DNA of 35,575 bases from a virus (lineage: Duplodnaviria > Heunggongvirae > Uroviricota > Caudoviricetes): IMG/VR virus record IMGVR_UViG_2579779007_000007; one strand, written 5' to 3'. The position numbers and the translations under genes were made by a program. The notes beneath the pieces were generated by a model. The model was given only the letters and a program-made list of their open reading frames with translations. It was not told the DNA's origin and did no database searches. This document shows, one piece after another, positions 1 to 16,364 of this stretch; positions within the stretch are counted from its first letter, which is position 1, and each line of letters begins with the position of its first letter.

Positions 1-21
1 ATGCGAGAGACAGTCGAAATT

Positions 22-351
22 ATGCGTTATCCCGTCACTCTTACACCCGCGCCGGAAGGCGGTTATATGGTTTCTTTTGTGGATATCCCTGAAGCGTTGA
101 CCCAGGGCGAAACTGTCGCTGAAGCGATGGAAGCGGCAAAAGATGCTTTACTGACCGCATTTGATTTTTATTTTGAAGATAACGAGCTTATCCCGTTACC
201 TTCGCCATTAAATAGTCATGATCACTTTATTGAAGTACCTTTGAGCGTCGCCTCTAAGGTATTGCTGTTAAATGCTTTTTTACAGTCAGAAATCACTCAG
301 CAAGAGTTAGCCAGGCGAATTGGCAACCCGAATGTAGTCAACCCAAAATAA
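22..351 (+). CDS. hicB: HicB-family antitoxin, N-terminal domain only; ORF ends after 8 unrelated codons, apparently disrupted by the AT-rich element
   Basis: Translation MRYPVTLTPAPEGGYMVSFVDIPEALTQGETVAEAMEAAKDALL... matches the enterobacterial HicB N-domain as recalled. Start of an Xre-like HTH (ITQQELARRIG) is cut off near nt 331. GC drops from about 50% to about 35% after nt 340. Confidence 0.6.
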   Translation: MRYPVTLTPAPEGGYMVSFVDIPEALTQGETVAEAMEAAKDALLTAFDFYFEDNELIPLPSPLNSHDHFIEVPLSVASKVLLLNAFLQSEITQQELARRIGNPNVVNPK

Positions 352-583
352 CTAAAAATTTTGCAATAAAAAGCCCCATCTCAAGGACAAGGCTTAGAAA
401 TCAACTAATTAACATAGTTTCCAGATCAAAGGGGTTATAATGAAATCCATAAAAGGTGATCTGTTAGCTGGGTGCTGTATATCTAAAATGTTACTTAATT
501 AATATCGTTCTGGTGGTTAGCTTTCATCGCATCCCACCATTTTTGAGTAATCTTCATGCTATTGAATTGCATCATTTCACCTC

Positions 584-1363
584 TTACTCTGCGTCTACCA
601 TGTCACATGCAAATTGAGTGTGTTTATATTCAGAATCAAATTTTGGTTCAATTACTTCAAGACGCATGTCACCTTTTTTGCTTACCCAGATGTTATAAGT
701 GTTAACACGTCCAATAGCATCCTGTTTGGATTTACCTTCCATTGCGTTTGGATTCTCTTTAGATGGCTTGAGACTTGATTTATAAACATCATACTTGTCG
801 GAATACACAAAAGATACAGGAACATCGTCTACCATTTTGATCTTAAGTTTACCGCCGTTATTATCAAAAGTTTTGTTTCCGTAGAGTTTATCTTTTACAG
901 CTTCTGTTTCCTCACCATCGATAACTTTCCATGTAAATTTTGTAGTACATGCGTAAATCGCGGTAACATTCAGTTTCTTTACTTCTTCCTGTTTCGGTTG
1001 TTCTTCTTCAATCTTCGCAGAAGTCTCTGAATCGCTCTCTGACGCGGTTTCTTCTTTAGATAATACATTCATCAAGTTTTGGATTTGAGCGTTGTATACA
1101 GCCTCCAGTGGCTGAATCTGCCCGATATTGATCATTGTATCACGAACAGTTTTATTCCAGTTGCGTTGCTCTTGTTTAAGAGACGGATCAATCTTAACAG
1201 CCTTAACATATACTTCATGAAGTTTAGAATCCAGTGCGGAGATTGACTCATTAGCACAAATAAACTTCTCTGATTTGGTTATAGCCTTAGTGCAATCAAA
1301 GGACGCAGCATCAGCACCGAAAGCAGTAGCAGAAAGCACGATAGCAGCGATAATGTTTTTCAT
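584..1363 (-). CDS. secreted protein with N-terminal DUF1311 (LprI-like, lysozyme-inhibitor family) domain and an unknown C-terminal domain
   Basis: 259 aa ORF with signal peptide MKNIIAAIVLSATAFGADAA. Motif C..A.T..E..IC...L..LD..L...Y followed by QR.W...RD is typical of DUF1311. RBS AGAGG upstream. Confidence 0.5.
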   Translation of the reverse strand: MKNIIAAIVLSATAFGADAASFDCTKAITKSEKFICANESISALDSKLHEVYVKAVKIDPSLKQEQRNWNKTVRDTMINIGQIQPLEAVYNAQIQNLMNVLSKEETASESDSETSAKIEEEQPKQEEVKKLNVTAIYACTTKFTWKVIDGEETEAVKDKLYGNKTFDNNGGKLKIKMVDDVPVSFVYSDKYDVYKSSLKPSKENPNAMEGKSKQDAIGRVNTYNIWVSKKGDMRLEVIEPKFDSEYKHTQFACDMVDAE

Positions 1364-1721
1364 TTTATACCTCTTTTGGTATGGACTGACTTTTAGATGC
1401 TTACTTTATTGATTTTTGATATTTTTTCAATTATTGGGATGAGATTTAGTAATTAAATTAAGAAATTAATGCTTGACAAATTAAAAAGGTACTGTTCCAC
1501 GGATGAAATAAAGGGAGTTTTCGGCACCCCGGTATTTGATACGCGTGTGAGATTTTAAAACGTGATCAGTGCAGTCCTAGCGCGGTTGCTACGCGACTAT
1601 TAACCCACTTCCTAGCCCTTACCATTACTGGATCTTTCCCTTCGTTAGAATGCGATTTAGGCGCTTAGATTGTGCGTAAAACCAATAAATAAAATTACGC
1701 AAATTTAATGGAGGATAACCA

Positions 1722-2276
1722 ATGAAAGAAGAATTAACCCTTACAGAAATTTCCCGTTTATACGGCTATTCATTGAATGGTGGCGCTAAGCGATGGATAG
1801 AAAGGGGATTGCCATTTAACACCAATACCCGCCGCGTGCCAGCCAAAGAAGGAACAGAATGGGTCTTGAAAAATATTATCAACCCGCTTAAACAAACTTC
1901 TATCAAAGAACAAATCGATGTAGAGAAATTACGCCGTGAACGTGCTTTGGCAGATGCAGCCGAACGAGAGAACCAGGAAAAAATGAATCTCCTGATTCCT
2001 GTCGGTTATGTAGAACAGGAACTAGCGGAATATTGCGGGAAAGTGAAGCAGACTATTTTGCAGATCGCCACAATTGACGTTTTGGAAGTTCTCGAATCTG
2101 CCACCGACCAGAAAACATTGAAGAACAAATTAAGGGAGATCATCGAGCGTCGTTTAAATGAAGTAGGGGACTTGTTCGAAAATGCTGATTTGGGAGAAGA
2201 CGAGGAAGAAGAATTACCATTAATGGATGAACCGGAAGAAGAACCAGAAGAAGACGATGAATTTGATGTGTCTTAA
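1722..2276 (+). CDS. lambda Nu1-like terminase small subunit (putative)
   Basis: 184 aa. N-terminal winged-HTH-like segment, central EKLRRE..AL.DA segment resembling lambda Nu1, acidic C-terminus. RBS GGAGG. Pairs by family with the gpA-type large terminase at 8493. Confidence 0.5.
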   Translation: MKEELTLTEISRLYGYSLNGGAKRWIERGLPFNTNTRRVPAKEGTEWVLKNIINPLKQTSIKEQIDVEKLRRERALADAAERENQEKMNLLIPVGYVEQELAEYCGKVKQTILQIATIDVLEVLESATDQKTLKNKLREIIERRLNEVGDLFENADLGEDEEEELPLMDEPEEEPEEDDEFDVS

Positions 2277-2327
2277 AATTTCTATACTAAATACATATGT
2301 GAAAGATGTTGAGCTGGTCAACGTCTA

Positions 2328-2363
2328 CGGGGGAGAACATCCCCCGCTTAACCTTTTTCTTAT
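2328..2363 (+). terminator. putative intrinsic terminator after the Nu1-like gene
   Basis: CGGGGG-agaacat-CCCCCG hairpin followed by a T-rich tract that begins 7 nt after the stem. Confidence 0.35.
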
Positions 2364-2377
2364 TTGAGGATTTACCT

Positions 2378-2479
2378 ATGGTTGAATTTTTGATTTATCT
2401 TACTGTAGGATTAACTATCGTATATTCACTGGCACATATTGGCATTTCTGCTGTGTGTAACGCTTTCAAGTATCATTAA
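2378..2479 (+). CDS. small hydrophobic peptide (33 aa, one predicted TM helix)
   Basis: Manual translation MVEFLIYLTVGLTIVYSLAHIGISAVCNAFKYH, with GAGGA about 8 nt upstream. Below the 60-aa ORF-track cutoff. Confidence 0.3.
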   Translation: MVEFLIYLTVGLTIVYSLAHIGISAVCNAFKYH

Positions 2480-2532
2480 TTAAATCGATGAATTGAACTA
2501 TAGATGATGGTCGTGTTCAAAGAGGATTATCT

Positions 2533-2706
2533 ATGGATCTTTTTGTCTACTTTGCTACTCTGCTGTTTTTGACTATCGTCGCTGGCATTAAATTGATTTT
2601 TATATCGCTGGTGGTGTTTTTCAAATTTCTAATCGGTACGCCTTACGGCTGGGTATGCTTCTTTTTGTTTATTCTTTTTAGTTGCTGTAAAAAGGATACT
2701 AAATAA
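2533..2706 (+). CDS. small membrane protein (57 aa, two predicted TM helices)
   Basis: Manual translation MDLFVYFATLLFLTIVAGIKLIFISLVVFFKFLIGTPYGWVCFFLFILFSCCKKDTK, with AGAGGA 7 nt upstream. Confidence 0.35.
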   Translation: MDLFVYFATLLFLTIVAGIKLIFISLVVFFKFLIGTPYGWVCFFLFILFSCCKKDTK

Positions 2707-2864
2707 TAGTGTAATCTGCCTTTTCTCCTTATGGTTATTAACAGGGGATCTTCTTTGAGGATTCCCGATTAAAAGCCATAAAACACACTCCAGTACAGTG
2801 TTTTCATAGTCAGTGATCTATACAACACAAAAACATAACAAGTATAGATTGAGTATTAATCCTC

Positions 2865-2890
2865 CCGCCCCTTCGGGGCGGTTATTTTTC
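2865..2890 (+). terminator. intrinsic terminator
   Basis: CCGCCCC-ttcg-GGGGCGG hairpin followed by TTATTTTT. Confidence 0.6.
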
Positions 2891-2966
2891 TGGCTTTAAA
2901 GAATAATGTAGCATTATGTTCATTATAACCTCATCTTTGTTGTGCAAACCTAACCTAAACTTACTA

Positions 2967-2992
2967 GGGACTCTTCGGAGTCCCTTTTTTTT
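2967..2992 (+). terminator. intrinsic terminator, possibly bidirectional
   Basis: GGGACTC-ttcg-GAGTCCC hairpin followed by eight T. It abuts the stop codon of the minus-strand gene 2991..3233. Confidence 0.6.
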
Positions 2993-3233
2993 ATGCAACA
3001 ATTCGAAGTGTAAGTTTCTTATGTTGTGTAGGTTTAGTTTCATTTCGCCACTCAGGGAATACATGATCCATCATAACCGCATTAGTCTCATCAATCAGCT
3101 TTAAGGACTTTCTCAACGCCTTATTATCAGCTTTAAGAGTTTTAATCTCTGATTCCATCGCTACCATTCTTTCTTTCATTTTGGTAATTTCTAACATCAG
3201 ATTACCCAGAAATTCTTTGTTTTGATTCATCAT
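2991..3233 (-). CDS. hypothetical coiled-coil protein (80 aa)
   Basis: ORF with RBS GAGGGGTGAA. Heptad-rich sequence. Lies 16 nt downstream of the 333-aa gene on the same strand. Confidence 0.45.
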   Translation of the reverse strand: MMNQNKEFLGNLMLEITKMKERMVAMESEIKTLKADNKALRKSLKLIDETNAVMMDHVFPEWRNETKPTQHKKLTLRIVA

Positions 3234-3248
3234 AGATTCACCCCTCTA

Positions 3249-4250
3249 TTAAGCTGCGTATGCGTAGGCGCTGTAGTTGGTGTCGTAGATAGCGTCATGC
3301 AGTGCCATCTGTGCTTCGCGGATCTCGTCTTCGTTTACTTCAATCTCTTCTTGTTCTTCTTCGGTATCTTCCCAAGTGGTTTTGAATTTAGCCATAAAGT
3401 TATTGCGCAGGGATTCAAAGTTAGTAACAGGTGCGGATTTTTCTTCAACCGGAACTACTACCGGATCAGCTTCTTTCTGTTCTTCCTGTTCTACTTTTTC
3501 ACCATTACCCCAGCGATAGTTAAGGAGTTCTTCCAGTTCTTCATCAATGGATTTTTCTTCAACTGCTTCAACTTCAACCGCTGCTACTTCGAAAGTGGTT
3601 TCCTGTGCTGCCAGTTCAGCTTTCAGAGATGCGTTTTCAGCTTCCAGTTCAGCAATGCGTGCTTTCAGTGCTTCAACTTCGGAAGATTCAACCACTGCAA
3701 CTTCTTCTTTAACTTCTTCAACTACTACCGGAGCAACTTCTTTCTGTGCTTCTTTTTTGCAGAAGAAGGAGGAAGTAACCTGTAATGCGTGGTTGTAGAA
3801 GGAACCGCCTTTAGCGGTGTTAACAGTACCAGAAACATCCTTTACAGTGGATTCGGTAGCAACAGTACGGAAGCGTTTTGCGACTTCCTGGGTCTCTACG
3901 CCGTATTCGTTACGCTTGCTCTTGTGATGCATTACAGCACGGAAGCCGGAAGCAGTTTTAACAACAGCCAGATAGTAAGTTTCATCGGCTTTAACAGCAC
4001 GAGCGAAGCAATAAACGGATTCACCTTCTACCAGTGTAGGTTTAACGTGACGTTTGTCGAAACGGTTAGTGATCTGCCATTCAGCACCGTCTTTGATGCC
4101 AGCATTCTGACGCATTTCGGTCAGAGTCTTACCGGATACTACTTCAAAGGATTTGTCTTGTTTGCTTGCTTTACCTTCCATGACGGTAATGTTCAGTTTG
4201 CCGTTGGATTTAATAAACAGGTTGAAGGTGATGCGCTTAGAATTTTTCAT
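3249..4250 (-). CDS. hypothetical protein: N-terminal globular domain, central coiled coil (EALKARIAELEAENASLKAEL), acidic C-terminal region
   Basis: 333 aa ORF with RBS GGAG. Coding-like composition. No family recognised. Confidence 0.6.
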   Translation of the reverse strand: MKNSKRITFNLFIKSNGKLNITVMEGKASKQDKSFEVVSGKTLTEMRQNAGIKDGAEWQITNRFDKRHVKPTLVEGESVYCFARAVKADETYYLAVVKTASGFRAVMHHKSKRNEYGVETQEVAKRFRTVATESTVKDVSGTVNTAKGGSFYNHALQVTSSFFCKKEAQKEVAPVVVEEVKEEVAVVESSEVEALKARIAELEAENASLKAELAAQETTFEVAAVEVEAVEEKSIDEELEELLNYRWGNGEKVEQEEQKEADPVVVPVEEKSAPVTNFESLRNNFMAKFKTTWEDTEEEQEEIEVNEDEIREAQMALHDAIYDTNYSAYAYAA

Positions 4251-4295
4251 TTATAAATACTCCTGAATGCTGTGTTAGTTTTAATTGTTCATATC

Positions 4296-4330
4296 AAAAG
4301 CCTCCTTGCGCCAACAGGGAGGCTTTTTTA
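4296..4330. terminator. bidirectional terminator-like hairpin between the 60-aa and 333-aa genes
   Basis: AAAA-GCCTCC-ttgcgccaacag-GGAGGC-TTTTTT: an A-run before and a T-run after the stem. Confidence 0.4.
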
Positions 4331-4367
4331 TTTTTAAAGCCATCATATAATTCTCAGTGAAAGGTTA

Positions 4368-4550
4368 TTACCAGACCTCGGCGGTAATCTTTACTTTAAT
4401 ATCATACTTCTTTAAGAGTTTGTGGAAGGTTGATTGATCAATACCTTCACCTTTAAACCATTCACCCATCACTACATCAGGTGTCAGTTCAAAATAACGC
4501 TTTGCCATTTCTAAAACGATTTCACGAGTGAACTTAACAGGTCGTGCCAT
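4368..4550 (-). CDS. small HTH DNA-binding protein (60 aa)
   Basis: Strong RBS AGGAGGA. Pattern FTREIVLEMAKRY...GIDQSTFHKLLKKY resembles IS/phage-type HTH. Confidence 0.5.
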   Translation of the reverse strand: MARPVKFTREIVLEMAKRYFELTPDVVMGEWFKGEGIDQSTFHKLLKKYDIKVKITAEVW

Positions 4551-4907
4551 CTTATATCCTCCTAAATCTGGAATAATGATTTCTTAAAAAAGAGCTTTTC
4601 GCTCTGAACAATTCTATTTATAAAATGTTTTTCGAAAAACCCTGTAAAACCACTGTATATCCGATCAGTGGGAGCACGAATTGCTAAAGAGAAGATTAAT
4701 AATTAATCAATTCGTACATTATTCAATCGAATAAGCACTGTATGTTTAGCCAGTTCTGTATGAATTAACAGTGAGTCAGGGGATTTTCAGAAGTGAACAA
4801 TCATTTCATGCATGTATTTATACACGAAAAAATCTTGCGTATCATCAATATGGGGATTGTTTCGAAAATTTCAACCCCTACCAACGAGAAAAAGCATAAA
4901 ATAATCC

Positions 4908-4921
4908 TTGACAGTTGTCAA
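4908..4921. promoter_or_regulatory. palindrome TTGACA-gt-TGTCAA (back-to-back -35-like hexamers or operator)
   Basis: Perfect 6-bp arms. A leftward -10 candidate TATGCT lies 17 bp away on the minus strand, positioned to drive the 4550-to-2991 cassette. Confidence 0.3.
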
Positions 4922-4946
4922 TACACTTGATCTAAGCGAGAAATGA

Positions 4947-4969
4947 CTATCAAAATTTTTGTGTGAAAA
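4947..4969. repeat. direct repeat copy 1: CTATCAAAATTTTTG-TGTGAAAA
   Basis: Near-identical 22-23 bp copy at 5096..5117. A DnaA-box-like TTATCAACC sits between them at 4983..4991. Confidence 0.5.
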
Positions 4970-5095
4970 TGGCGGATAACGATTATCAACCTTTATAACC
5001 TATTATAGCACGGCGACCTTTTGATAATTCTTTTTAAATCATGCATTTACGGCGGTTTTTGGTGATTTTCTGGTTAAATAATATACAAGAATTTT

Positions 5096-5117
5096 CTATC
5101 AAAATTTTTGATGAAAA
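5096..5117. repeat. direct repeat copy 2: CTATCAAAATTTTTG-ATGAAAA
   Basis: See copy 1. This copy directly abuts the iteron array. Confidence 0.5.
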
Positions 5118-5118
5118 A

Positions 5119-5239
5119 CCTACACTACAAACCTACGCTTTAAAGGGATTGGCCTACACTACACTAGCCAGTAAACCTACACTATAACACCCTCAAACCT
5201 ACACTATGAAACCTACACACCTACACTAACCCTACACTT
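5119..5239. repeat. iteron array: about 8 direct copies of CCTACAC(T/G)(A/T) in about 120 bp
   Basis: Copies start at 5119, 5132 (variant), 5153, 5176, 5198, 5212, 5220 and 5231. Several spacings are 21-23 bp. Preceded by an AT-rich tract, inside a 1.27-kb stretch with no ORF of 60 aa or more. Confidence 0.7.
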
Positions 5240-5584
5240 CAATCTCATAAGTGTATGATCTTGAAAGACATTTCACCCCACAGACCATAGAATATAAAAT
5301 TCGAACTAACGTTCTCCTTTTTGCTCGTTTTCTCTCACTACGTTCAAGAAAGATCTCGCAAAAAGAATACGGCGTAGCCGTGCGCGAAGCGCCCATCAAC
5401 ACCTTCTAAGACCTGCAAGCAGGATTCGAAAGGGATTGGATAGTTCGCTTCGCTCACGTTCACGCCTACGGCGTTCACTCGCTTTTGAAAGGATTTTCTT
5501 AGAAAGGGATTTAATACTAGTTACTAACTGATTCTAGTAAACGAACGAAGTGAGTAACAATCACTTTCTAGAAAGGTATTGGTT

Positions 5585-5613
5585 ATCCCTTCGGGATTGC
5601 AACCTTCGGTTGC
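5585..5613 (+). other. two tandem GC-stem hairpins with TTC(G) loops (candidate structured RNA element)
   Basis: ATCCC-ttc-GGGAT immediately followed by GCAACC-ttc-GGTTGC. No clean T-run follows. Confidence 0.35.
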
Positions 5614-5817
5614 TAAATTGCTTCCTGATTATTATTTCTCCAAAAGAAAGATTCTTATATTCTAAAGATACTTCTTCGTTTTGATGATGATTTAATCAAA
5701 CCATGAAGGAGGGCTTTAGCCCGACTGAATACAATCACCTTTCATAATAACAAGAATTTTCTCTTTATAAATAATAGTGAACTTACTTGATTCACTTTCT
5801 TTTAGAGGATTTCCACT

Positions 5818-6285
5818 ATGAACCATAAAATGACTACCACTACTCCTTTTATCCTTCTGGGTCTGGATTCTGATAGCTTCCACAATGACAAGTTAATGAA
5901 GATGTTCCGTGAACGTGGTTATAACATCCTTTTCAACTCTGATGAATCCCATTTCTCTAGTGCATGGTATGCGTTTTACCGTAATAAGAAGCCGACCATT
6001 GTAGTTAACTGCTTCACCGATGAAGAACGCTTAAAGTACCAGGATCTACCAGCAATTATTGTCCGTGATGATCTGCCGTTTCAAGTCCGTTCCGGTGACA
6101 TTGATCTGGGTAGCTTCGTTACTGTCTATGAACTGGATGAAGCAATGTTTAACTACGGCAAAGAAACCGCTCAGGAAGCCCCAGAAGAAGATGAACAAGA
6201 CGAAGATGACGACGACTACGCACCAATCTGTTTTTCTTCTCAGAATGGCTTCTACGGTTACGACGAAGGCTTAGATATGCTGTAA
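5818..6285 (+). CDS. hypothetical acidic protein (155 aa)
   Basis: RBS AGAGGA. N-terminal alpha/beta-like segment (PFILLGLDSDSF...), then a strongly acidic stretch EEDEQDEDDDDY. Confidence 0.55.
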   Translation: MNHKMTTTTPFILLGLDSDSFHNDKLMKMFRERGYNILFNSDESHFSSAWYAFYRNKKPTIVVNCFTDEERLKYQDLPAIIVRDDLPFQVRSGDIDLGSFVTVYELDEAMFNYGKETAQEAPEEDEQDEDDDDYAPICFSSQNGFYGYDEGLDML

Positions 6286-6320
6286 GTTAGGTCAACCCTT
6301 TGGCGTCTTGTCAAGGGGTA

Positions 6321-6349
6321 TTGACAAAAATTTCTGACTTTTTTATGAT
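6321..6349 (+). promoter_or_regulatory. sigma70-like promoter TTGACA-17 bp-TATGAT
   Basis: Consensus -35, 17-bp spacer, 5/6 match at -10. An inverted TTGTCAA lies just upstream (6309..6315). Positioned to drive the 6408 ORF and the Rha gene. Confidence 0.5.
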
Positions 6350-6407
6350 TGTCGCACTTGACAACTTTAAACCTATTTGACCTAGATTTGTAAATGGGAT
6401 GTTAATT

Positions 6408-6554
6408 ATGAACACTACTAAGAAAATTGATGGACGTAAAACCCCGAACCGCAAACCGTGGACCCCAAACCTGAATTTCTCAATGGTTGACTTCCATGAA
6501 CGCCAGCGTCGCATTCAAGAAGAAATTGATCGCGCGATTGCTGAATCTAAATGA
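6408..6554 (+). CDS. small basic protein (48 aa), hypothetical
   Basis: Manual translation MNTTKKIDGRKTPNRKPWTPNLNFSMVDFHERQRRIQEEIDRAIAESK. Its start region resembles the Rha start (ttaattatgaaYact...). Confidence 0.3.
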   Translation: MNTTKKIDGRKTPNRKPWTPNLNFSMVDFHERQRRIQEEIDRAIAESK

Positions 6555-6580
6555 GATAAAAACTTCTTATAAATAAAATT

Positions 6581-6602
6581 GTTCCGGTGATGCTGCCGGA
6601 AC
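6581..6602 (+). promoter_or_regulatory. perfect hairpin GTTCCGG-tgatgctg-CCGGAAC just upstream of the Rha RBS
   Basis: 7-bp perfect stem with no T-run after it, so possibly an attenuator, processing site or protein-binding palindrome. Confidence 0.3.
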
Positions 6603-6651
6603 TAGGAGGATCAATATCATTATCGCAAAACCGTTTAAGGGGAATTTAATT

Positions 6652-7458
6652 ATGAATACTGTTACTGCTATGAATACTACTAAAACCGCTTCCGTGTCTC
6701 TGGTTGTTGATAACACCAAACCGCTGACCATGTCTTCTCGTCAGATCGCTGAATTTACCGGAAAGAAACACTTTCACGTAAAACGCGACATTCGCGAAAT
6801 GCTGATTACCTTAGAATTAGATGAATCCAAATTTGGATGCATCTTTTTTGATCAATATGGACGCGAGCAAACAGAATATCACTTGAATGAAGAACTGACT
6901 CTGACTCTTGTCACTGGTTACAATATCCAGATGCGAAACGCGGTTATTCAGGAATGGAAGCGACTGAAAGAAGAAAATGAAAAACTTCGCTCTACTCCGG
7001 TTAACCCGTATGCAGACTTTGAAGAAACCGACTGGATCGAACTGGCGTTAAAGAAAACTCGCGAGAACAAGCAACTGATTACTCTACATCATCGCAAATC
7101 CGTAGATAGCCATTCAATGACGCGTTTGTTAGGTGCTAAAAAGGGCGCTACGAAGGTTAAAGAAGCACTGACGGCCTTACGTACTGCCGGATACATTGAG
7201 CGCGTCTATGATGAAAATAACAAGCCGTGTGGGTATGTTGCTAATGATTCCGCGATACCGTTTTGCAGCATGAACGCTCACTATCAACTTTCTTTCACTG
7301 TTGATGTGCTTCCGGTGCTGGTTGAATTGGGTGTTCTTGAAGAAGAACAAAAAGCAGCTTTGACACTGCCTAAACCGAATAACACGATCATGATTCAGAA
7401 TAAAGCGACTATCATGATTCGTCAGAATGTTGGATCGCTAGAACACTTCGGACTGTAA
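6652..7458 (+). CDS. rha: Rha-family phage regulatory protein (antirepressor-like)
   Basis: 268 aa. N-terminal SSRQIAEFTGKKHFHVKRDIREM matches the Rha-domain signature. RBS AAGGGG. Confidence 0.7.
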   Translation: MNTVTAMNTTKTASVSLVVDNTKPLTMSSRQIAEFTGKKHFHVKRDIREMLITLELDESKFGCIFFDQYGREQTEYHLNEELTLTLVTGYNIQMRNAVIQEWKRLKEENEKLRSTPVNPYADFEETDWIELALKKTRENKQLITLHHRKSVDSHSMTRLLGAKKGATKVKEALTALRTAGYIERVYDENNKPCGYVANDSAIPFCSMNAHYQLSFTVDVLPVLVELGVLEEEQKAALTLPKPNNTIMIQNKATIMIRQNVGSLEHFGL

Positions 7459-7466
7459 TAATTTTT

Positions 7467-7491
7467 GCCCCTGAATTTCAGGGGCTTTTTT
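7467..7491 (+). terminator. intrinsic terminator after rha
   Basis: GCCCCTGAA-(a)-TTCAGGGGC followed by TTTTTT. Confidence 0.7.
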
Positions 7492-7503
7492 GTATCTGTA
7501 GGT

Positions 7504-7532
7504 ATAAAAAAAGCCAACCCCGAAGGATTGGC
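7504..7532 (-). terminator. intrinsic terminator for the minus-strand 85-aa gene
   Basis: On the minus strand: GGCCAATCC-ttcg-GGGTTGGC followed by seven U. Convergent with the rha terminator. Confidence 0.5.
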
Positions 7533-7540
7533 CTAGAGAA

Positions 7541-7798
7541 TCAAATTCCTGTTGCTTCTACCATTTCACCATCAACCTGAACAAAGAATTTCAAATCAAC
7601 TTTATGAAGGGATTTGTATAGCTGGGCTATGGATAAGCCATGCTCATTTAATACCCGCTCTTTGTTCTCTTTACCTTTCGGTGCTTGATAGTACGCTTTT
7701 ACAATCGCTGCCAGTTGTTCACGATTAAAACGGGCAGGGCGACCGCGAGTAGCTTTAGTAGTCATAGTCATTTTCTCCAAATTAAAGTGAATGTTCAC
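7541..7798 (-). CDS. small DNA-binding protein (85 aa), HTH-like
   Basis: TRGRPARFNREQLAAIVKAYY...GLSIAQLYKSL pattern. Starts 2 nt after the stop of the upstream 201-aa gene. Confidence 0.5.
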   Translation of the reverse strand: MNIHFNLEKMTMTTKATRGRPARFNREQLAAIVKAYYQAPKGKENKERVLNEHGLSIAQLYKSLHKVDLKFFVQVDGEMVEATGI

Positions 7799-7800
7799 CT

Positions 7801-8406
7801 TTATTTAGAGGACTTACATTTTATCGGAAAAAGTTCTCCATCGTCAACCGACATAAAGAACTCTGCCTTAATCCCGTACTTCTTCAACCGTGAATAATAT
7901 GTACCCCGACTAATATCAACCTTGCGCAGCACTTCGAAGAACTCTTTAGGATTCCTGTAATAGTGGCTATATCGCACGTTAGCGAGTTCTACAAACAATT
8001 CCCTTGTATCACCATAGCCTTTCTTGAAAGCCACGTTACGATAGCGTGTAATGGCATGATTCAATCTCTTCTGTTTAAGCACTTCCCTGATCGGCTTCCA
8101 CTGCAACCGATAGATAGGACCGTCATCAATGCGATAATAACGCTTGATATCAAAATCAAACCAATCTCGGACTCTCCGAAACTCTGTATGTGATGTTCTA
8201 TGCTTCTTAAAGAAGTTGTGAACGTCTCTATAGCCATTATCACGGTAAAATTCTATTAAAATCTCTTTCGCTTCCTCACGGCTAAACCCAGATGTTGTGT
8301 AATCGGTCTTTAAGTGCTTATGTTTTACTGGCAAACGATATTCATGATCGGTACAACAAGACAAGGCTAATTCTACTTCATCTCTTTGTTGCTGATTAAT
8401 TAGCAT
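7801..8406 (-). CDS. hypothetical basic protein (201 aa) with C-terminal HTH-like segment
   Basis: Rich in R/K/Y. C-terminal ISRGTYYSRLKKYG is HTH-like. Divergent from the large terminase gene. Confidence 0.55.
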   Translation of the reverse strand: MLINQQQRDEVELALSCCTDHEYRLPVKHKHLKTDYTTSGFSREEAKEILIEFYRDNGYRDVHNFFKKHRTSHTEFRRVRDWFDFDIKRYYRIDDGPIYRLQWKPIREVLKQKRLNHAITRYRNVAFKKGYGDTRELFVELANVRYSHYYRNPKEFFEVLRKVDISRGTYYSRLKKYGIKAEFFMSVDDGELFPIKCKSSK

Positions 8407-8492
8407 ACACCCTCCTTAAATCTTAATACCGTATTTATCAAAATATCAACAATTTAATAAATACCTTCATATTTCGTAATGAGGGTAATTAC

Positions 8493-10400
8493 ATGAAACT
8501 GATTTCTAATAAGGCAAAATTAAAAAAGATTCTCAGAAATGCAGCCAAATATATTACGCCACCGCCTAAACTCCTTCCATCGGAATGGTGCGAAGCGAAT
8601 CTAACGCTAGTCGATGGTCCTCGTGCTGGGGATAAAGTTAAATTGCTGTCATTTCAGAAAGGCATGATTGATGCTCCTTTCCTTGAGAAGAAAAAGAAGT
8701 ACGTTTTTTGTACGAGTGCGCAGATCGGAAAGACGACCATCATGTCAGGGATCATGTTTAACCAGATGGCAAACGATCCGTGTAATATCATTATCGGGCA
8801 AAGTACCGCTAAAGAAGTGGCTATGTACTTGAATACTAAGATCCGTCCTTCTATTGAAGCATGTCCGGCATTACAGGAAGTGGTAACAGATAAGAATGAT
8901 CGTAATGCGGTAAACAACAATAACCAGATTCAGCTAAAAACAAACCATTTCCTTTACATGGTTTCTTTGACCAGTCCTTCAAGTTTGCGCGGGCGTACTG
9001 CCAAGTTAGGGATTGTAGACGAATGCGACGCAGCAACAATCACCGAAGAAGGTTGCCCGGTGGCACTAACTGCAAACCGTTTAACTACCTTTGGTGATGA
9101 AGCTCGATTGATTGTTTCTAGTACCCCGACCAATAAGCTGGGAATCATTAACCAGCAATGGTTATCAAGTGATATGCGTATGTTTTTTGTTCCGTGTCCT
9201 CATTGCGGGGAACACCAGGTGATCGAGTGGGAAAACGTTCAATTTGAATGGCGTAACATTGATGGTAAGAACTTACCCGATCCTGATACCGCTCGTTATA
9301 TTTGCCCCCACTGTAAGAACGCATGGACAGAAGGGGAACGAATCAGGGCAGTAGCGCAAGGCGAGTGGAGAGCAACCCGTGAAAGTGAAGTAGCAGGATT
9401 CTGGATCAGTCGTCTGTATTCACCTTTCAGCACGATCCGCGCTTGTGTGGTTGATTTTAGTCATGCGTGGCAATCCTTTGATTTACAATCCTTTTTTAAC
9501 ACCGTGTTAGGCAAGGTATACGACGATCAGGACACGGCAGTAGAAGCAAATGAACTGGAACAACTCAAAACAGATGTTTCTATCGAGAATATCCCTGATG
9601 ACGTGATTTTCTTGTGTGCGGGTACTGACCAGCAATTAGATCGCGCAGAAACTACGATCATGGGCGTGGCAAAGGATAAGATTTATATTCTGGATCACCG
9701 CAGCTTTTACGATCATAACTGTGAACGATATGAATCACCTGTATGGGATAGATTAATCAACTTCCATAAAACCAAATTTACTACTGTATCGGGTGATCGT
9801 GTTCCTATGCTCGCCAGCTTCCTTGATACATCGAACGGTCGATTCACTCAAGCTGGATACCGTATTTGCGGCAAGTGGAAGAACTTACACGCTATCAAAG
9901 GTAGTTCTGCTGGTAACGCTCCGATCATTCCGGTTAAACCTACCCGCACAGGTGGTCATGAATTGCTTATGCTGGGCGTTAACGTTGGGAAATCCGCTGT
10001 TCGTGAAATGCTGGTTAGAAACCTGAAAGATAATCCTCATATTGGCTTAGAAATATCAGAAACCATTCCTGATGATTATCTCGATCAGCTTTTGAGTGAA
10101 TCCATCAAGCGTACTACTACTGGCGTGCGTTGGGTGAAAAATCCAGGTAGTACCCGAAACGAGGCTCTCGACTGTCTGGTTTATAGCTATGCTGCTTCTC
10201 GCTACGTTCTTTCAAAAATGTCATGGGATAAACTCATTGCAATGAAAGACAGCTTAAACCGTGTTGTCGAAGAATCCGTAGAAGCTCCTAAATCGCAATC
10301 TGACGAGCAAATCGAAGAAAATAAGCCAATCACACGACCACAACGTAAAAACATCGCCAGACGCCCAAATAGAGGCCGTAGCTGGGTAACATCGTTCTAA
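8493..10400 (+). CDS. terL: terminase large subunit, lambda gpA family
   Basis: 635 aa. Recalled gpA-family blocks: [45 protein letters not shown]. Confidence 0.9.
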
Positions 10401-10472
10401 TAACTCGCCGTCCTTCGGGGCGGCTTACTCCTAAATATTGTTAATCCAATAACAATTAAATAAGGGGTAATT

Positions 10473-10967
10473 ATGAGTTTAGAACTAATTCCCTTAGTAA
10501 TTCGTAAAGGTGAAAAAATCACGCTGGCGAATGAAGAGGGTGTAACAATTCAGGTAGGAAATAGTAAAGGTATCATTTATCAGGTTGATGATACTCCGGC
10601 TAATCATGAGATTAAAACCTTAGATTTTGCCGAAGGTAAATATACCATCGTAACCACTTTGGAAGAAGAACTGGTATCAATGCAGGAATTAACTGTTTTA
10701 CCAGTATTCGCCAAACAATCCAAAAAAGAATATCTGCGGGAAACTATCGCCTTAATCGAGCAAGTTATTTTCGCCCGTTTATCTGGGGACGAAGCCGCAT
10801 TATCTCAAATGACAGTGAAAGGGAATACTTTCGCCTATGAGTCATTAGGTGTTCTCCAGCAATTAAAGACTGATTATGAACGTCAGTTATCAAAATTAAT
10901 TCAAGCCGAACGACGTAAACAGGGAATTAGCCCGATTAAAAATATTAAAGTACGTCTTACGCGATAA
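10473..10967 (+). CDS. hypothetical head-associated protein (164 aa)
   Basis: Sits between terminase and portal, with the AAGGGGTAAT-type RBS common to the late genes. Confidence 0.55.
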   Translation: MSLELIPLVIRKGEKITLANEEGVTIQVGNSKGIIYQVDDTPANHEIKTLDFAEGKYTIVTTLEEELVSMQELTVLPVFAKQSKKEYLRETIALIEQVIFARLSGDEAALSQMTVKGNTFAYESLGVLQQLKTDYERQLSKLIQAERRKQGISPIKNIKVRLTR

Positions 10968-10977
10968 GGGGTAAATC

Positions 10978-12489
10978 ATGTTTAATCTTTTTCGACGCAA
11001 AAAGGCGGTAGAAACTCCAGTTAAAACTAATCACCGCCAACAACAACCAAAAATTTTCATCGACAAACAAGTAGAAAAATTTCAGAAAGATTTGTCTAAG
11101 CGTTCTTTGGGCTTAGTCGGTGATCGAATTGATGGGCAGCTTCAACAAGATACTATCACCGGAACGTTCAATAAGGCTCTCAAATCGAACGGTAAGCGCC
11201 TTTATGATCAGGGTCGTACTCTGGCCTTAAACACTTCCGTAGGCAGTCGATACACGCAATACATCACCGATATGGTGGTAGGTACTGGCCTAGATCCGAA
11301 GCCGTCAATCGTTAAATCAAATGGCAAACTTGATAGCGCACTGAATAAGCAGATCGAGAATGCTTTCTGGAAGTGGGCGCAGAATGCTAAACGCTTCTCT
11401 CGTAACGGTCGCTTTAACTTCCGTGAATTGCTGGTAATGGCTGAACGTGAGCGCGTTATGGGTGGTGAGTGTTTCATCGTTTTAACTAAAGAAAACAATG
11501 AGTTAAATGTTTCTATCCTGTCTGCTGATAAGTGCGACTGGACTCTCAACCGTGAAGTGAGCAAAGAACGTGCGATATATCAAGGTGTGGAGTATGCCGT
11601 AGAAACGATGAAGCCCGTGGCATACTGGTTTCGTAAAGTCAACCTACTGACTCAGACCTACACTGGTGATAACTATCGCGTCGATGCTTCGCAAGTATGC
11701 CATTATTATCAACCGCTTACCGCCGAATCCCTGCGTGGTGTGACTGACTTCCTGCCAGTGATTAAGGATATCGCACATCAAGATGCATTCCGCGAAACTG
11801 CGATCATCCAGAAACGCATTGCAGCTAGCTCTATGGGCTTTATCGAACGTCCGAAAGATTCTGGTGACGATTTTGATACTGGTGAAGAGGATGAACAATA
11901 TCAAGCGCCGGAAGTAGTACAGGACTTTGCACCGGGTACTATTCAGGAATTGCCGGAAGGGGCAACGATTAAGTCAATTCAGAGCGCCCAAAGTGGCGAT
12001 GACTTTAACAGCTTCAATGATGCGATGTTTACTAGCGTATCAATGGGCTTAGGCGTGTTTAAACAGGGCTTAACTGGTGATACCAGCCAGATCAACTACA
12101 GCGCAGCCCGCTACGGCGAATTGCTTCAACGCACACGAGTTAAAGCACTGCAAAACAAATTAATTGAAACAGTGGTATTGCCAATTTTTGAAGCATATCT
12201 ACGCCATTATTCCGCGCGTGGTATTGTTCCGATTCGTATTACTGCAATTCCGCATATTATCGACAACACTACTATTATTCGTCCGCGTTTTGAATCCGTC
12301 GATCCTATTAAAGACGTAAACGCTGATATTGCTTTAATTGATAAAGGACTTAAATCACGTACTGCCGTTATATTAGAACGTGGTGATGATCCTGAAAAAG
12401 TATTCTCAGAGATTCAAGCCGAAAAGAGCGCACTAAATATTATCGTTGATGGTGAGGGTGAAGAAAAAAATTCCCCAGCCGATCCCTAA
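10978..12489 (+). CDS. portal protein (lambda gpB-like)
   Basis: 503 aa, position after terminase, C-terminal block resembling lambda-type portals. Confidence 0.8.
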   Translation: MFNLFRRKKAVETPVKTNHRQQQPKIFIDKQVEKFQKDLSKRSLGLVGDRIDGQLQQDTITGTFNKALKSNGKRLYDQGRTLALNTSVGSRYTQYITDMVVGTGLDPKPSIVKSNGKLDSALNKQIENAFWKWAQNAKRFSRNGRFNFRELLVMAERERVMGGECFIVLTKENNELNVSILSADKCDWTLNREVSKERAIYQGVEYAVETMKPVAYWFRKVNLLTQTYTGDNYRVDASQVCHYYQPLTAESLRGVTDFLPVIKDIAHQDAFRETAIIQKRIAASSMGFIERPKDSGDDFDTGEEDEQYQAPEVVQDFAPGTIQELPEGATIKSIQSAQSGDDFNSFNDAMFTSVSMGLGVFKQGLTGDTSQINYSAARYGELLQRTRVKALQNKLIETVVLPIFEAYLRHYSARGIVPIRITAIPHIIDNTTIIRPRFESVDPIKDVNADIALIDKGLKSRTAVILERGDDPEKVFSEIQAEKSALNIIVDGEGEEKNSPADP

Positions 12490-12534
12490 TAACCAACGGG
12501 GGCGCAATGCCCCCAATTAATTAAAGGTGATTAA

Positions 12535-14547
12535 ATGCTTAAATTTCGCCGCGATCTTAACGGTTACGGTGGAGTTATTAATGAAGGGCATAACGATCAA
12601 TACGAATTTGAAATTGCTTTCTCAAGTACACAGCCTTATCAGCGCCAATTTTGGGATGAGCAAAATCAAGAAATGGTGGTATTAGATGAAATTCTGGTAC
12701 ATACACCGGAAGCGGTTGATCTGTCTCGTCTGAATAATAACGCTCCGTTGCTGTTCAATCACAATTTCGATAATCACATTGGTGTAGTTTGTAACGCTCG
12801 AATCGATGCGGATAACGTAGGTCGTGCTCTGGTTAAGTTCTCCAAGCATGGGACTTTGGCTAATGATATTCGTAATAAAGTCATTGAAGGTACGATGGAA
12901 AAAATTTCGGTCGGCTATGACATTAAAGAATATCACATCGACTACACCAAAGGACAATTGATTGTTACTAAGTGGGCACCCTATGAACTCTCATTTGTCA
13001 CCGTTCCCGCAGACGATACGGTCGGTTTAAATCGCTCTCTAAATACTATCACAGTTAATTTGGAGGCTAAACGCGATATGACTAAAGAACAAATCGAAGA
13101 AATCAAAGAAGAACAAGAACCCGCTCAGGTTGAAGAAACTCCGGTAGAAGAAAATAAAGAACCGGAAGTTGAAGAAACTCAAGAGCGCCAAGTTGAAGAG
13201 AATAAAGAAGATGAAAATCTCGAAGACGGAAAAGACGCTGAACATCCTGAAAGTGTTGATGATGATAGTTCAACTGTTCGGGAAACAGAAGAAGTAAAAG
13301 AAGAACGTGAAGCTGCTCCGGTTGAAGAAGAAAAAACCGAGGAAGTGGCTGAACGTTCCGAAGAAGACGAATTAGAAATTCGCGAAATTGCACGCGAGTT
13401 AAATATTAACGAAGACGATGAAGAATTTAAACGCGCATTGGCAAATAAAGAAATTACGCCGGAAGCATTCCGCACTAAGGCACTAAATAACATTACCAAT
13501 GCTCAACGTAATAACGAACAAATTAATAAGGAACAAATCATGGAAAAAACTTTCGATCTTAATAACGTAATCCGCTCCCTGGTAGATGGCGACGTGCTCG
13601 GCGCTAACGAAGCTGAATATTCCGCAATGGCTGCTACTGCAACTATGCAGCGTGGTCGTGCTGCTCGTGGTGGCTCTGTATTCGTTCCGGCTGCTGCTAT
13701 GCGTGCTGCTGCTGATGGCAACACCAAAGCTAATCTGGTTGCTATCACTGACGAAAAACTGATGACTGAATCCTACATCGAAATGCTGATGCCTCAGAGT
13801 GTTTTAGGCCGCCTCGGGGTGACTGTTTATAGTGGCTTGACTTCTCCGACCGCTATTCCAAAAATGACTAAATCCAGCGTTGACGCTTTCGGATTCGTAG
13901 ATGAAAATGGCGCTGCCCCCGAGTCACATGCGGAATTTTCGAACGTGAAACTGTCTCCGAAAACTTTTGCTGGTGGCAACCCGATCAGCCGTCAGTCGCT
14001 GAAAACCGTTCCGGGCATCGCTACCCTGATCACCGATCACATTAACAAATCTGTTCGGATCAAACTGGAACAACTGATTCTGTCTGATAAAGAAAATGCT
14101 CGTGGTCCGGCTGGTCTGGTTAAGCAACTGGTAGACGCTAGCCGCGTTACCAAGAAAGCTGCTTTCTCTTATAAAGATTTCCTCAAGGAGATTGCTCAGC
14201 TTACGGACGCTGGCGTTCCTGCTCAGGCGATCAAGTTTGCGATGAGCGGTGCAACTGCTGCTGAACTGGAATCTACCCTGAAAGATAACGGCGTTTCCGG
14301 TTATATCATCGAAAACGGCAAACTGGCTGGTTACGAAGTAGTTACTTCTGGCGTTATTCCGGCAGATCACATCGTTCTGGGTGACTTCTCCGGTATTACC
14401 ATCGGTGAGTGGGGCGGTCTGGAACTTGACATGGATCTAACTACATATCGGGATCGTGGGGCGGTAGTGCCTAGAATCTTTGTAGATTTGGACTACGTTG
14501 TAGCACAGCCGGAAGCGCTGAAAGTTCTTCACATCTCCGCTGACTGA
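12535..14547 (+). CDS. fused prohead protease (HK97/S78-like) - acidic scaffold-like linker - HK97-fold major capsid protein
   Basis: 670 aa. Residues 1-170 match the S78 prohead protease pattern, residues about 180-330 are E-rich, the C-terminal 340 aa are HK97-MCP-like. Ends with TGA. Confidence 0.8.
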   Translation: MLKFRRDLNGYGGVINEGHNDQYEFEIAFSSTQPYQRQFWDEQNQEMVVLDEILVHTPEAVDLSRLNNNAPLLFNHNFDNHIGVVCNARIDADNVGRALVKFSKHGTLANDIRNKVIEGTMEKISVGYDIKEYHIDYTKGQLIVTKWAPYELSFVTVPADDTVGLNRSLNTITVNLEAKRDMTKEQIEEIKEEQEPAQVEETPVEENKEPEVEETQERQVEENKEDENLEDGKDAEHPESVDDDSSTVRETEEVKEEREAAPVEEEKTEEVAERSEEDELEIREIARELNINEDDEEFKRALANKEITPEAFRTKALNNITNAQRNNEQINKEQIMEKTFDLNNVIRSLVDGDVLGANEAEYSAMAATATMQRGRAARGGSVFVPAAAMRAAADGNTKANLVAITDEKLMTESYIEMLMPQSVLGRLGVTVYSGLTSPTAIPKMTKSSVDAFGFVDENGAAPESHAEFSNVKLSPKTFAGGNPISRQSLKTVPGIATLITDHINKSVRIKLEQLILSDKENARGPAGLVKQLVDASRVTKKAAFSYKDFLKEIAQLTDAGVPAQAIKFAMSGATAAELESTLKDNGVSGYIIENGKLAGYEVVTSGVIPADHIVLGDFSGITIGEWGGLELDMDLTTYRDRGAVVPRIFVDLDYVVAQPEALKVLHISAD

Positions 14548-14676
14548 ACTAGCGTAGAACCTTCTGAACCTTCCCCCGATTTGGGGGAAGAAAATCTGAT
14601 TCCATCTCAGGAAGAAGAAGTTCAAGAGGTTACGGCGAAAGCCACAGTTAAAAAACAACGTAAAACTAAAGAATAA
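14548..14676 (+). other. in-frame 42-codon extension after the capsid TGA (candidate readthrough segment)
   Basis: Same frame as 12535..14547, no ATG. Encodes TSVEPSEPSPDLGEENLIPSQEEEVQEVTAKATVKKQRKTKE, then TAA. Confidence 0.45.
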
Positions 14677-14681
14677 TAATT

Positions 14682-14710
14682 AGCCCTGCCTTAACGGTGG
14701 GGCTTTTTTG
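14682..14710 (+). terminator. intrinsic terminator after the capsid extension
   Basis: AGCCCTGCC-ttaac-GGTGGGGCT followed by TTTTTT. Near-identical copy at 20632..20660. Confidence 0.7.
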
Positions 14711-14739
14711 TATGTAAATACTCCATAAAGGGGGTAACT

Positions 14740-15030
14740 ATGTTCAAATTATCAGAATCACAATTATCAAGAATGTTTAAGAGTGCTCCTGTATTTTCGG
14801 TGGAAGGTGGTAAATCAATTCGTGCTTATCATGAAATTACCACTACCGACGAACAAGGGGTAATTACAGAATCAGAATTTCTATTTTGTCGTGAGGGAGA
14901 CTTAAATCAGGGTGATGTTGTCATTGTAGACGGTGAACGCTTCAAAGTTCAATACGTTAAGCGCAATGGTGATAATACTTCTGATTGCTTTATTGCTCGT
15001 GCAGGGGGTACACATGCTCGCTACCGTTAA
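14740..15030 (+). CDS. head-tail connector/adaptor protein (putative, 96 aa)
   Basis: Position after capsid gene, RBS AAGGGGGTAA. Confidence 0.55.
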   Translation: MFKLSESQLSRMFKSAPVFSVEGGKSIRAYHEITTTDEQGVITESEFLFCREGDLNQGDVVIVDGERFKVQYVKRNGDNTSDCFIARAGGTHARYR

Positions 15031-15439
15031 TAATATGCCTAGACTGAAAATCAAACGCGCCTTGCAGGATATTATCGAACAAGATTTAGGTCTGGCTTTA
15101 AACGTAGAACAAACTCAGCAAGGCTTTATTAGTGATGACGTGGTTTGTTGGATTACCGGAATGAATGAGACTTACAATAGGGTCCGTGGTGGTAATGCAA
15201 TGCAAGCTGAATGCGTTATCGAAATGCAGTTGTATTCTCAGAATCATGAAACCAAAATTCATGAGGGTATTTGCCAGATAATCCAGATTCAGCCAGATAA
15301 CCCACGTTTTAAAGATTTGGGCTTCTCAATTTCAGATATCACTCCAGTAGCCTCTAATACCGATTATGACGATGATTCTAGTGATGGGGGTATCGTTGGG
15401 ACACTTAGCCTTAAATTTTCTTATCTAGCGCGTTTTTAA
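15014..15439 (+). CDS. head-tail joining / tail completion protein (putative, 141 aa)
   Basis: Start chosen at the ATG preceded by AGGGGG, overlapping the upstream stop. The ORF-track start at 14933 is probably too far upstream. Confidence 0.5.
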   Translation: MLATVNNMPRLKIKRALQDIIEQDLGLALNVEQTQQGFISDDVVCWITGMNETYNRVRGGNAMQAECVIEMQLYSQNHETKIHEGICQIIQIQPDNPRFKDLGFSISDITPVASNTDYDDDSSDGGIVGTLSLKFSYLARF

Positions 15440-15448
15440 GGGGTAATA

Positions 15449-16282: not shown

Positions 16283-16315
16283 AGGATTCTCCTACCTAAA
16301 TAAAACATGAACGTT

Positions 16316-16346
16316 GGGAGGTTAACGCCTCCCTTATTCCTGTTTT
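16316..16346 (+). terminator. putative intrinsic terminator
   Basis: GGGAGG-ttaacg-CCTCCC followed by a T-rich tract. Confidence 0.45.
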
Positions 16347-16364
16347 ATAGTGAGGTGATTCTAG

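Follow-up and report, generated by a model that had tools for sequence, protein, structure and literature searches.

A type-specific repeat array in the non-coding gap of an Escherichia coli prophage family and its candidate protein partner

The DNA analyzed here, called the window throughout, is a stretch of 35,575 nucleotides that corresponds to one whole prophage of 35.6 kb in E. coli. Near its left end a first-pass annotation had described a 1.27-kb region free of open reading frames of 60 aa or more, holding about eight direct copies of CCTACAC(T/G)(A/T), several of them 21–23 bp apart, next to AT-rich DNA. It had found no initiator or ParB-like gene adjacent to these repeats and had left the binding protein open. 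The locus thus raises the question of which protein, if any, reads such an array, and what the two might do for a prophage in which no replication gene is recognizable.

The prophage and its repeat array

E. coli strain H2 is 99.8% identical to the window across the region of interest, and in this strain the element splits hicB, with the N-terminal part of the gene at the left end of the window and the C-terminal part just past its right end. The element encodes a large terminase of the lambda gpA type, portal, capsid, tail and lysis proteins, and a serine recombinase. The nearest isolate in the phage collection has a large terminase only 43% identical, so that there is no close phage isolate. 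Megablast matched the 1.27-kb gap in 58 of 5,426 complete E. coli genomes, all matches being chromosomal; integration in the chromosome was found at 61 of 61 places, and the plasmid collection gave no match to the gap or to the element. The family occurs in about 1% of the complete E. coli genomes, the type A block of the window (see below) in 18 of the 5,426 and the type B block in 33, and one family protein is present on more than 1,000 contigs. As regards double lysogens of one type, type A blocks occurred once per genome, and the two places recorded for type B may stem from repeats within the query itself. The family has no cultured representative and no recognizable replication or immunity genes. 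No replication genes were annotated in the window element and three other complete relatives, and no ParA/ParM/TubZ-type NTPase was annotated among the four complete elements.

At least two integration sites are used in the family, each within a gene: hicB (the window, L019 and L020) and, in L021, the PHP-domain phosphatase gene ycdX. The Salmonella copies (L022–L025) and L027 adjoin a PHP-domain gene that is probably ycdX, and integration site and array type are not coupled. In L019, a type B locus of E. coli PE15 (NZ_CP041628.1), positions 1–4470 hold ISApl1-mcr-1-PAP2-ISApl1 (colistin resistance) in place of the left arm, and this replacement reaches as far as the large leftward gene described below; with mcr-1 inside one relative, the replication and mobility of these prophages are of some practical interest. 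Megablast also showed patchy identity of 77–87% to the DNA of RB49-like phages at window positions ~983–19900, the patches falling under genes annotated as tail fibre, holin-adjacent hypothetical proteins and the like, which suggests gene exchange between a temperate siphovirus-like element and virulent T4-type phages.

Eight cores of the form CCTAC[AG]C, all on the same strand, start at positions 5119, 5132, 5153, 5176, 5198, 5212, 5220 and 5231. The spacings from core to core are 13, 21, 23, 22, 14, 8 and 11 bp, and the copies are thus phased at about one or two helical turns. Exact matches to CCTACACKW numbered six, all on the + strand within 5119–5239, against an expectation of 0.65 ± 0.81 for the whole window, and none of 100 shuffles gave six such matches. 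Elsewhere in the 35 kb of the window the CCTAC[AG]C core occurs three times on the + strand and six times on the − strand. The first description of the array was therefore sound in its copy number, with eight cores at 5119–5237, and in its spacing, with three of the seven distances at 21, 22 and 23 bp. It was also right about the adjoining DNA, which has a GC content of 0.30 at 4900–5118 and 0.36 at 5240–5370 versus 0.415 for the whole window.

The longest open reading frame within 4551–5817 is 56 aa, in agreement with the earlier account. PGAP annotation was absent from the gap across the 16 RefSeq genomes inspected, and Rfam searches at gathering and permissive thresholds returned nothing credible in it, nor was a tRNA or tmRNA found. 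A coding region was ruled out on the lack of any frame of 60 aa or more, the lack of a PGAP call and the wholesale swapping of the array sequence between types. Conservation in relatives, a check that the first-pass annotation had put forward, favored the array, as cores and spacing were kept in 21 type A loci; in L027, the most divergent of these, the cores were unchanged while the spacers differed. Judged by co-variation and layout, the array is a real and functional feature, best described as a type-specific binding array with a candidate partner. The features of the region and the array types are listed in Table 1.

Table 1. Features of the window in and around the non-coding gap, and array types found in the prophage family.
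Feature	Position	Strand	Description
80-aa coiled-coil gene	2991..3233	-	remainder of V1; C-terminus ...LTLRIVA
Variable block V1	2991-4250		80-aa and 333-aa genes; replaced in some relatives
333-aa orphan protein gene	3249..4250	-	beta-rich variable N-terminal domain of ~170 aa, coiled coil, acidic region, ...AYAYAA tail
60-aa gene	4368..4550	-	between array and 333-aa gene; not the specificity partner
Terminator-like hairpin and T-run in leader	4591..4605	-	~40 bp upstream of the 60-aa start codon
Sigma-70-like promoter, best in gap	4893..4921	-	TTGACA-17-TATGCT, 10/12; directed left to the 60-aa/333-aa operon
AT-rich block	4940..5118		GC ~0.30; abuts array; two AGAAWTKWCTATCAAAATTTTTG copies at its borders
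Variable block V2	5114..5478	+	array and type-specific right flank; swapped as a unit
Repeat array	5117..5239	+	8 direct repeats, unit AACCTACACTA
Two adjacent GC-rich hairpins	5369..5392	+	ACGGC-GTA-GCCGT and GCGC-GAA-GCGC; ~130 bp right of array
Second motif GAAAGGGATT, cluster within 5428..5580	5428-5437, 5502-5511, 5571-5580; 5559-5568	+ (first three); - (last)	
Array type A			AACCTACACTA; 8 copies; window
Array type A'			CCCTGCACTAA; ~6 copies; differs from type A by one base
Array type B			TTTTGCCCCTGAAA; 8 copies
Array type C			TCCCCG; 16-20 copies; 11-bp period; two clusters around AT-rich DNA
Array type D			ATCCCCAAGATTCCAC; 5 copies
Array type E			(A/G)TGTACAAG; 6 copies in main array and dispersed copies; 11-bp period; Salmonella
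Array type F			TCCCCCGGTATTAG; 8 copies; accompanies a type E array

In every relative inspected, an unannotated gap of 1.2–1.6 kb separates the leftward 60-aa gene from a rightward gene of ~155 aa. The −35 hexamer of the leftward promoter forms one arm of the palindrome TTGACAGTTGTCAA (4909–4922). In relatives this promoter matches at 11 of 12 positions, and in Salmonella it reads, by eye, TTGACA-17-TATAAT. About 280 nt after it, the hairpin of the leader is kept family-wide, the Salmonella loci included, and the leader between promoter and hairpin is one of the segments with alternative alleles. This arrangement suggests that the 60-aa/333-aa operon is under attenuation, antitermination or leader RNA control, and, because a terminator-like hairpin sits in the operon leader, the 333-aa protein is probably not made constitutively.

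The AT-rich block that abuts the array ends on the right in the palindrome ATCAAAAtTTTTGAT (5098–5112); it is 83–89% identical across types A–D and has another allele in L012, L013, L015, L017 and L018. To the right of the array, the paired GC-rich hairpins have three-base G-N-A loops (GTA and GAA) in the window, and DNA hairpins with such loops are unusually stable. In types B, C, D and E the stems of the corresponding hairpins are preserved despite base changes, and the loops differ. On the − strand of the window, a T-run follows the first hairpin, and the two together score as a terminator. The second motif, GAAAGGGATT, also has a copy within the array (5141–5150, + strand), and the gap holds five of the eight matches in the window. 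It was found in all array types, Salmonella included, often adjoining the palindrome CTTTCTAGAAAG (5564–5575), and it is probably the site of a family-wide conserved protein. Scans for DnaA boxes (TTATCCACA, at most one mismatch), the IHF consensus and GATC revealed no pattern conserved near the arrays.

At 5623–5701, just upstream of the 155-aa gene, 76 bp are ~82% identical to intergenic DNA of RB49-like T4-type phages (Krischvirus), and this stretch occurs at several places in some of the phage genomes. Two TTCG-loop hairpins precede it at 5585–5613. Mobile promoter-plus-stem-loop cassettes (PeSLs) have been described in RB49 and phi1 (PMC2839356), and the stretch in the window is probably a cassette of this kind.

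Array types and their pairing with a large leftward gene

We assembled ~52 related prophage loci from RefSeq, Salmonella, Logan and IMG/VR (21 of type A, one A', 20 B, four C, one D and five E). They keep the same gap, and the array at this position is of one of at least seven motif types. All types start at one junction, directly past a conserved ...TCTATCAAAATWTTTGAT or ...ACAAGAATTTTCTATCAAAATWTTTGAT, on the same strand and with similar spacings, those of the other array types being 11, 13, 21 and 22 bp. Mosaic borders were drawn from blastn alignment of the window to the loci of its relatives, and these delimited two variable blocks. Block V2 begins exactly at the first repeat (5114/5119), and similarity returns at 5479 in type B, 5571 in type C and 5679 in type D. 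Relatives in which V1 is replaced have V2 replaced as well. Between the two blocks, 863 bp (4251–5113) that comprise the 60-aa gene and the left portion of the gap remain 83–98% identical, and the segment 4599–5118 has an alternative allele of its own, which is independent of V1 and V2.

Stray sites of one type were seen among arrays of another. In type B arrays there are two or three units of type A together with one of type D, a type D unit also occurs in a single type A array, and type C arrays contain F-like units (TCCCCCGGATTAGG); the gap positions of stray sites are ~464–515 in L015 and L018, ~455–475 in L013, ~2095–2115 in L008 and ~2080–2230 in L010. They could be recombination scars or deliberate cross-talk of related prophages.

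Across the ~52 loci, which are not phylogenetically independent, the array type was never separated from the allele of a gene of ~313–371 aa. In the window this is the 333-aa gene, which lies beyond the 60-aa gene as seen from the array, ~0.9 kb to its left. The proteins encoded at the same position in type B, C and D elements (313, 340 and 320 aa, respectively) look unrelated to it, and the Salmonella protein has 366 aa. In tblastn searches of the complete type B, C and D elements the 333-aa protein found no similarity, whereas most other window proteins were 50–100% identical. Where the N-terminal domain was 77% identical the unit CCTACACTA was kept, and where it was 46% identical the unit was CCTGCACTA, with one base different. 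Locus L028, with two large paralogues, also carries two arrays, of types E and F.

The alleles of the 60-aa, 155-aa, Rha, 85-aa, 201-aa, TerS and TerL genes reassort against array type, and all seven were rejected as array partners; the 60-, 85- and 201-aa proteins, which had earlier been named as candidate binders, are thus set aside. For the 60-aa gene, the window allele, identical or nearly so, was found beside type A, type B and type D arrays, another of 56% identity beside types A and B, and type B arrays occur with at least three alleles. Because intervening and neighboring genes reassort in this way, the pairing of array and large gene is more than plain linkage. The 80-aa gene and the flank at 5240–5478 also co-vary with array type and are possible partners as well, which we counted against the assignment to the 333-aa protein. 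Given that the pairing of type and allele is unbroken while the DNA and genes between them reassort, we hold it to be highly probable (roughly 85%) that the array is a cis target, or docking site, of the 333-aa protein encoded at 3249–4250 on the − strand. Co-variation has thereby put a candidate, ~0.9 kb to the left, in the place that the first-pass annotation had left empty.

All variants of the large protein follow one plan, in which a variable N-terminal region of ~170 aa, predicted as largely beta structure, is followed by a coiled coil in the center, an acidic stretch and a short C-terminal tail. Between the N-terminal domains of types A, C and E hhalign detected a weak relationship (E ~5e-5 to 7e-5), and those of types B and D showed no similarity detectable in this way. 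Sequence searches of Pfam, PHROG, NCBIfam and PDB with the 333-aa protein and its type B–E counterparts gave coiled-coil noise only. Using phmmer against 1.84 billion cluster representatives, we retrieved three related clusters only, and tblastn searches of the phage and plasmid collections for the 333-aa family returned nothing. The one-genome-per-species collection yielded none in a scan with the 333-aa protein and in a profile scan with the 201-aa protein, and as both scans were empty, we found no relative whose corresponding position is taken by an initiator or repressor of a known kind. AlphaFold2 modeled the type A N-terminal domain with a pLDDT of 49.8 and the full type B protein with 46.4, and the coiled coil alone was confident. 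The C-termini of four types end in -AA (AYAYAA, DFAA, RKAA and DLAA), tails which we presume to resemble ClpXP recognition tags and treat as a lead rather than a result.

The 80-aa product that makes up the rest of V1 matches, in its own C-terminus, the tail (...PTLRLVA) of a full-length second large paralogue present in types C, D and E. This paralogue is located at 5121–6122 (−) in L020, 5627–6487 (−) in L021 and 8001–8921 (+) in L022, and in type A the 80-aa remnant is all that is left of it. The second paralogue is probably not the array reader, because its type C and type E copies are clearly alike and the arrays differ. The 60-, 85- (7541–7798, −) and 201-aa proteins (7801–8406, −) are likewise paralogues of one another, as judged by BLASTP (60-aa against 85-aa, E = 2e-5; 60-aa against the C-terminal module of the 201-aa protein, E = 1e-3). 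Their common GRPxKFT.E ... LKKY.IK pattern looks like a putative small DNA-binding module.

Possible roles of the array and its partner

The role that we favor for the array and the 333-aa protein is that of a prophage replication origin and its initiator, working in the manner of lambda O or SaPI Rep. The variable N-terminal domain would read one unit of ~9–11 bp per site, and copies one or two helical turns apart would place the bound proteins on the same face of the DNA, where they could form a multi-protein complex through the coiled coil. Loading of the 333-aa protein on the array would then open the adjoining AT-rich DNA and recruit host replication proteins, the latter being proposed because the element encodes no recognizable helicase, primase or polymerase. 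As no other replication gene is recognizable either, an iteron-type origin with its initiator is the most likely role, which we put at a little short of even odds.

Several properties of iteron origins were found at the locus. Where at least three phased direct repeats are expected there are eight, the region adjoining them is AT-rich by its GC content, and co-variation across ~52 loci and seven types points to a cognate protein encoded by the element. The presence of stable hairpins 130 bp from the array also speaks for an origin, as does an inverted pair of sites in L027 just downstream of the protein's own promoter; rep promoters of iteron plasmids have inverted site pairs likewise. The terminator in the operon leader, with the conditional expression that it suggests, and the precedent of the SaPI origins count on the same side. 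Against it, the 333-aa protein matched no known initiator family (Rep_3, lambda O, DnaA-like, RepB and similar), and neither DnaA boxes nor IHF sites were found conserved near the arrays, both of which lambda-type origins can do without. In addition, the array is 0.9 kb from the 333-aa gene and not within or beside the gene, as it is in lambda and the SaPIs. Extra sites beside central promoters in some relatives suggest that the 333-aa protein may additionally regulate transcription there.

These extra sites bear on a different role, in which the array would comprise the operators of a type-specific transcription factor, either an immunity repressor blocking rightward early transcription or an activator that works on a promoter close to the array on its right side. 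We regard this as possible, though less likely than an origin. The seven types could then, just as tentatively, be seen as immunity or switch specificities. The perfect co-variation of protein and site and the many specificities in one host species would fit diversifying immunity selection; co-variation of repressor and sites as in heteroimmune types was indeed found, and it is common to the origin model and does not discriminate. The position of the sites relative to promoters differs between loci. In type E loci of Salmonella three sites lie at ~+5 to +35 of the rightward central promoter, and in L026 a site overlaps −10/+1 of this promoter, so that types E and A' look operator-like. Promoter-like −10 elements follow the arrays of type A (TAGAAT, 5288–5293) and, read by eye, those of types B and D (TATAAA/TATAAT). 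In the window, however, there are no type A sites within ~180 bp of the central promoters, and the nearest good promoter, ~200 bp off, points away from the array. The strong promoter of the RB49-like cassette upstream of the 155-aa gene could not be blocked by the array, because the cassette lies downstream of it.

The protein itself offers arguments in both directions. Its coiled coil and protease-tag-like C-terminus recall the Mu repressor, but the -AA tails, together with the terminator-like hairpin before the operon, suggest an unstable and conditional protein and not a steady lysogenic repressor. On the side of immunity types, strain UTME-9 harbors a type A element together with one of type B. 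Eight to 20 phased direct repeats across 120–250 bp would be unusual for an immunity operator, and the family-wide GAAAGGGATT and CTTTCTAGAAAG motifs beside the early promoter are alternative candidates for such operators.

Base composition raised the idea that the array acts as RNA in a rightward transcript, either as a Rho-loading tract or as a binding platform for the 333-aa protein, which would control read-through into the early genes. The array strand contains 43 C versus 9 G (with 46 A and 25 T), C-richness on this strand extends to five of the seven types, and terminator-like hairpins are present within the gap. Type E (TGTACAAG) departs from this pattern, as it is not C-rich and has a palindromic core, and some sites in L022 and L027 are inverted, which fits recognition of duplex DNA. 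With no Rfam match and a rightward central promoter that is weak in the window, we judge an RNA role improbable.

A terminase recognition site of the cosB or pac type, for packaging by the lambda gpA-type machinery, was considered in view of the gpA family membership of the large terminase; lambda cosB carries repeated small-terminase sites. The TerS and TerL alleles reassort, to the extent that TerS of the type B locus L036 is 93% identical to that of the window and TerS identity among type A loci ranges over 70–100%. In addition, a distance of 2.8 kb separates the array from TerS and one of 3.3 kb from TerL, and the intervening genes are of opposite orientation; a packaging site is accordingly very unlikely.

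The first-pass annotation had grouped origins, partition centromeres and multi-site regulator arrays together. Its underlying claim of a multi-site protein-binding array is upheld by the conservation of the cores and the swapping of types, with both an origin and a regulator still in play. A centromere with a ParR- or ParB-like adaptor fares worst. Type C does resemble plasmid R1 parC in its 11-bp period and in its two clusters flanking AT-rich DNA, but the element was chromosomal at 61 of 61 places and without a plasmid match, has a serine recombinase, and showed no partition NTPase in four complete elements, so that we give this role hardly any weight.

Returning to the favored origin and initiator, a bolder version is possible, though less likely than not: these prophages may use an undescribed class of sequence-specific DNA-binding protein, with an orphan beta-rich N-terminal domain, a coiled coil and a protease-tag-like tail, that assembles on phased short-repeat arrays, fires or gates the only origin of the element and exists in at least seven mutually exclusive specificities within E. 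coli and Salmonella. An equally speculative extension is that, through the sites of other types, relatives that share a cell or superinfect it could sense, hijack or jam the replication of one another.

The pair of array and protein provides a first functional handle on the control region of the family and a testable role for an orphan protein family. It also makes available seven or more naturally occurring, orthogonal protein-DNA specificities, all built on a fold that escapes assignment by present tools. Should the pair be an origin with its initiator, the protein would represent a class of initiators not described before; as an immunity module, the pair would define the superinfection groups of the family.

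Comparison with known systems

The iterons of the lambda O/ori system (lambda, phi80, 82 and P22 gene 18) resemble the array in being direct repeats beside AT-rich DNA. In lambdoid O-type initiators the DNA-binding domain at the N-terminus is variable and, among related phages, changes along with the repeats; these proteins lack an enzymatic domain and need host replication proteins, and lambda O is rapidly degraded by ClpXP. In lambda, by contrast, the iterons lie inside the O gene, are ~19 bp long and have internal symmetry, whereas the units here are of 6–16 bp, asymmetric, 0.9 kb away from the gene and in non-coding DNA. The 333-aa protein also shares no similarity with O, Pfam and PHROG having given no match, and no P-like helicase loader is recognizable.

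In SaPI origins, six to twelve penta- or hexanucleotide iterons flank an AT-rich center, with specificity for the cognate Rep in each case (PMC9371898). Arrays of types C and E look very much like these, having 6–9-bp units, an 11-bp period and two clusters around AT-rich DNA. SaPI Rep has a winged-helix domain and acts as a self-loading helicase, and the ori follows rep directly on its downstream side; the 333-aa protein differs in having no ATPase domain, and the type A repeats of the window all run in one direction.

Iteron plasmids (F RepE, pSC101 RepA, R6K pi and P1 RepA) share with the window the direct repeats and the ~22-bp spacing, and the inverted motif pair at the protein's own promoter in L027 recalls autoregulation by Rep dimers. 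They differ from the present case, which is an integrated prophage with no DnaA boxes or IHF sites and no signal of a Rep_3-type fold.

The operators O1–O3 of the Mu repressor and the stoperators of mycobacteriophage L5 gp71 are likewise many, asymmetric and in one orientation, and their specificity types co-vary with the repressor. In the Mu repressor there is a leucine-zipper region, and the C-terminus is sensitive to ClpXP. Unlike the 333-aa protein, these repressors bind through helix-turn-helix or winged-helix domains of known kind, at sites that overlap defined early promoters or come after them.
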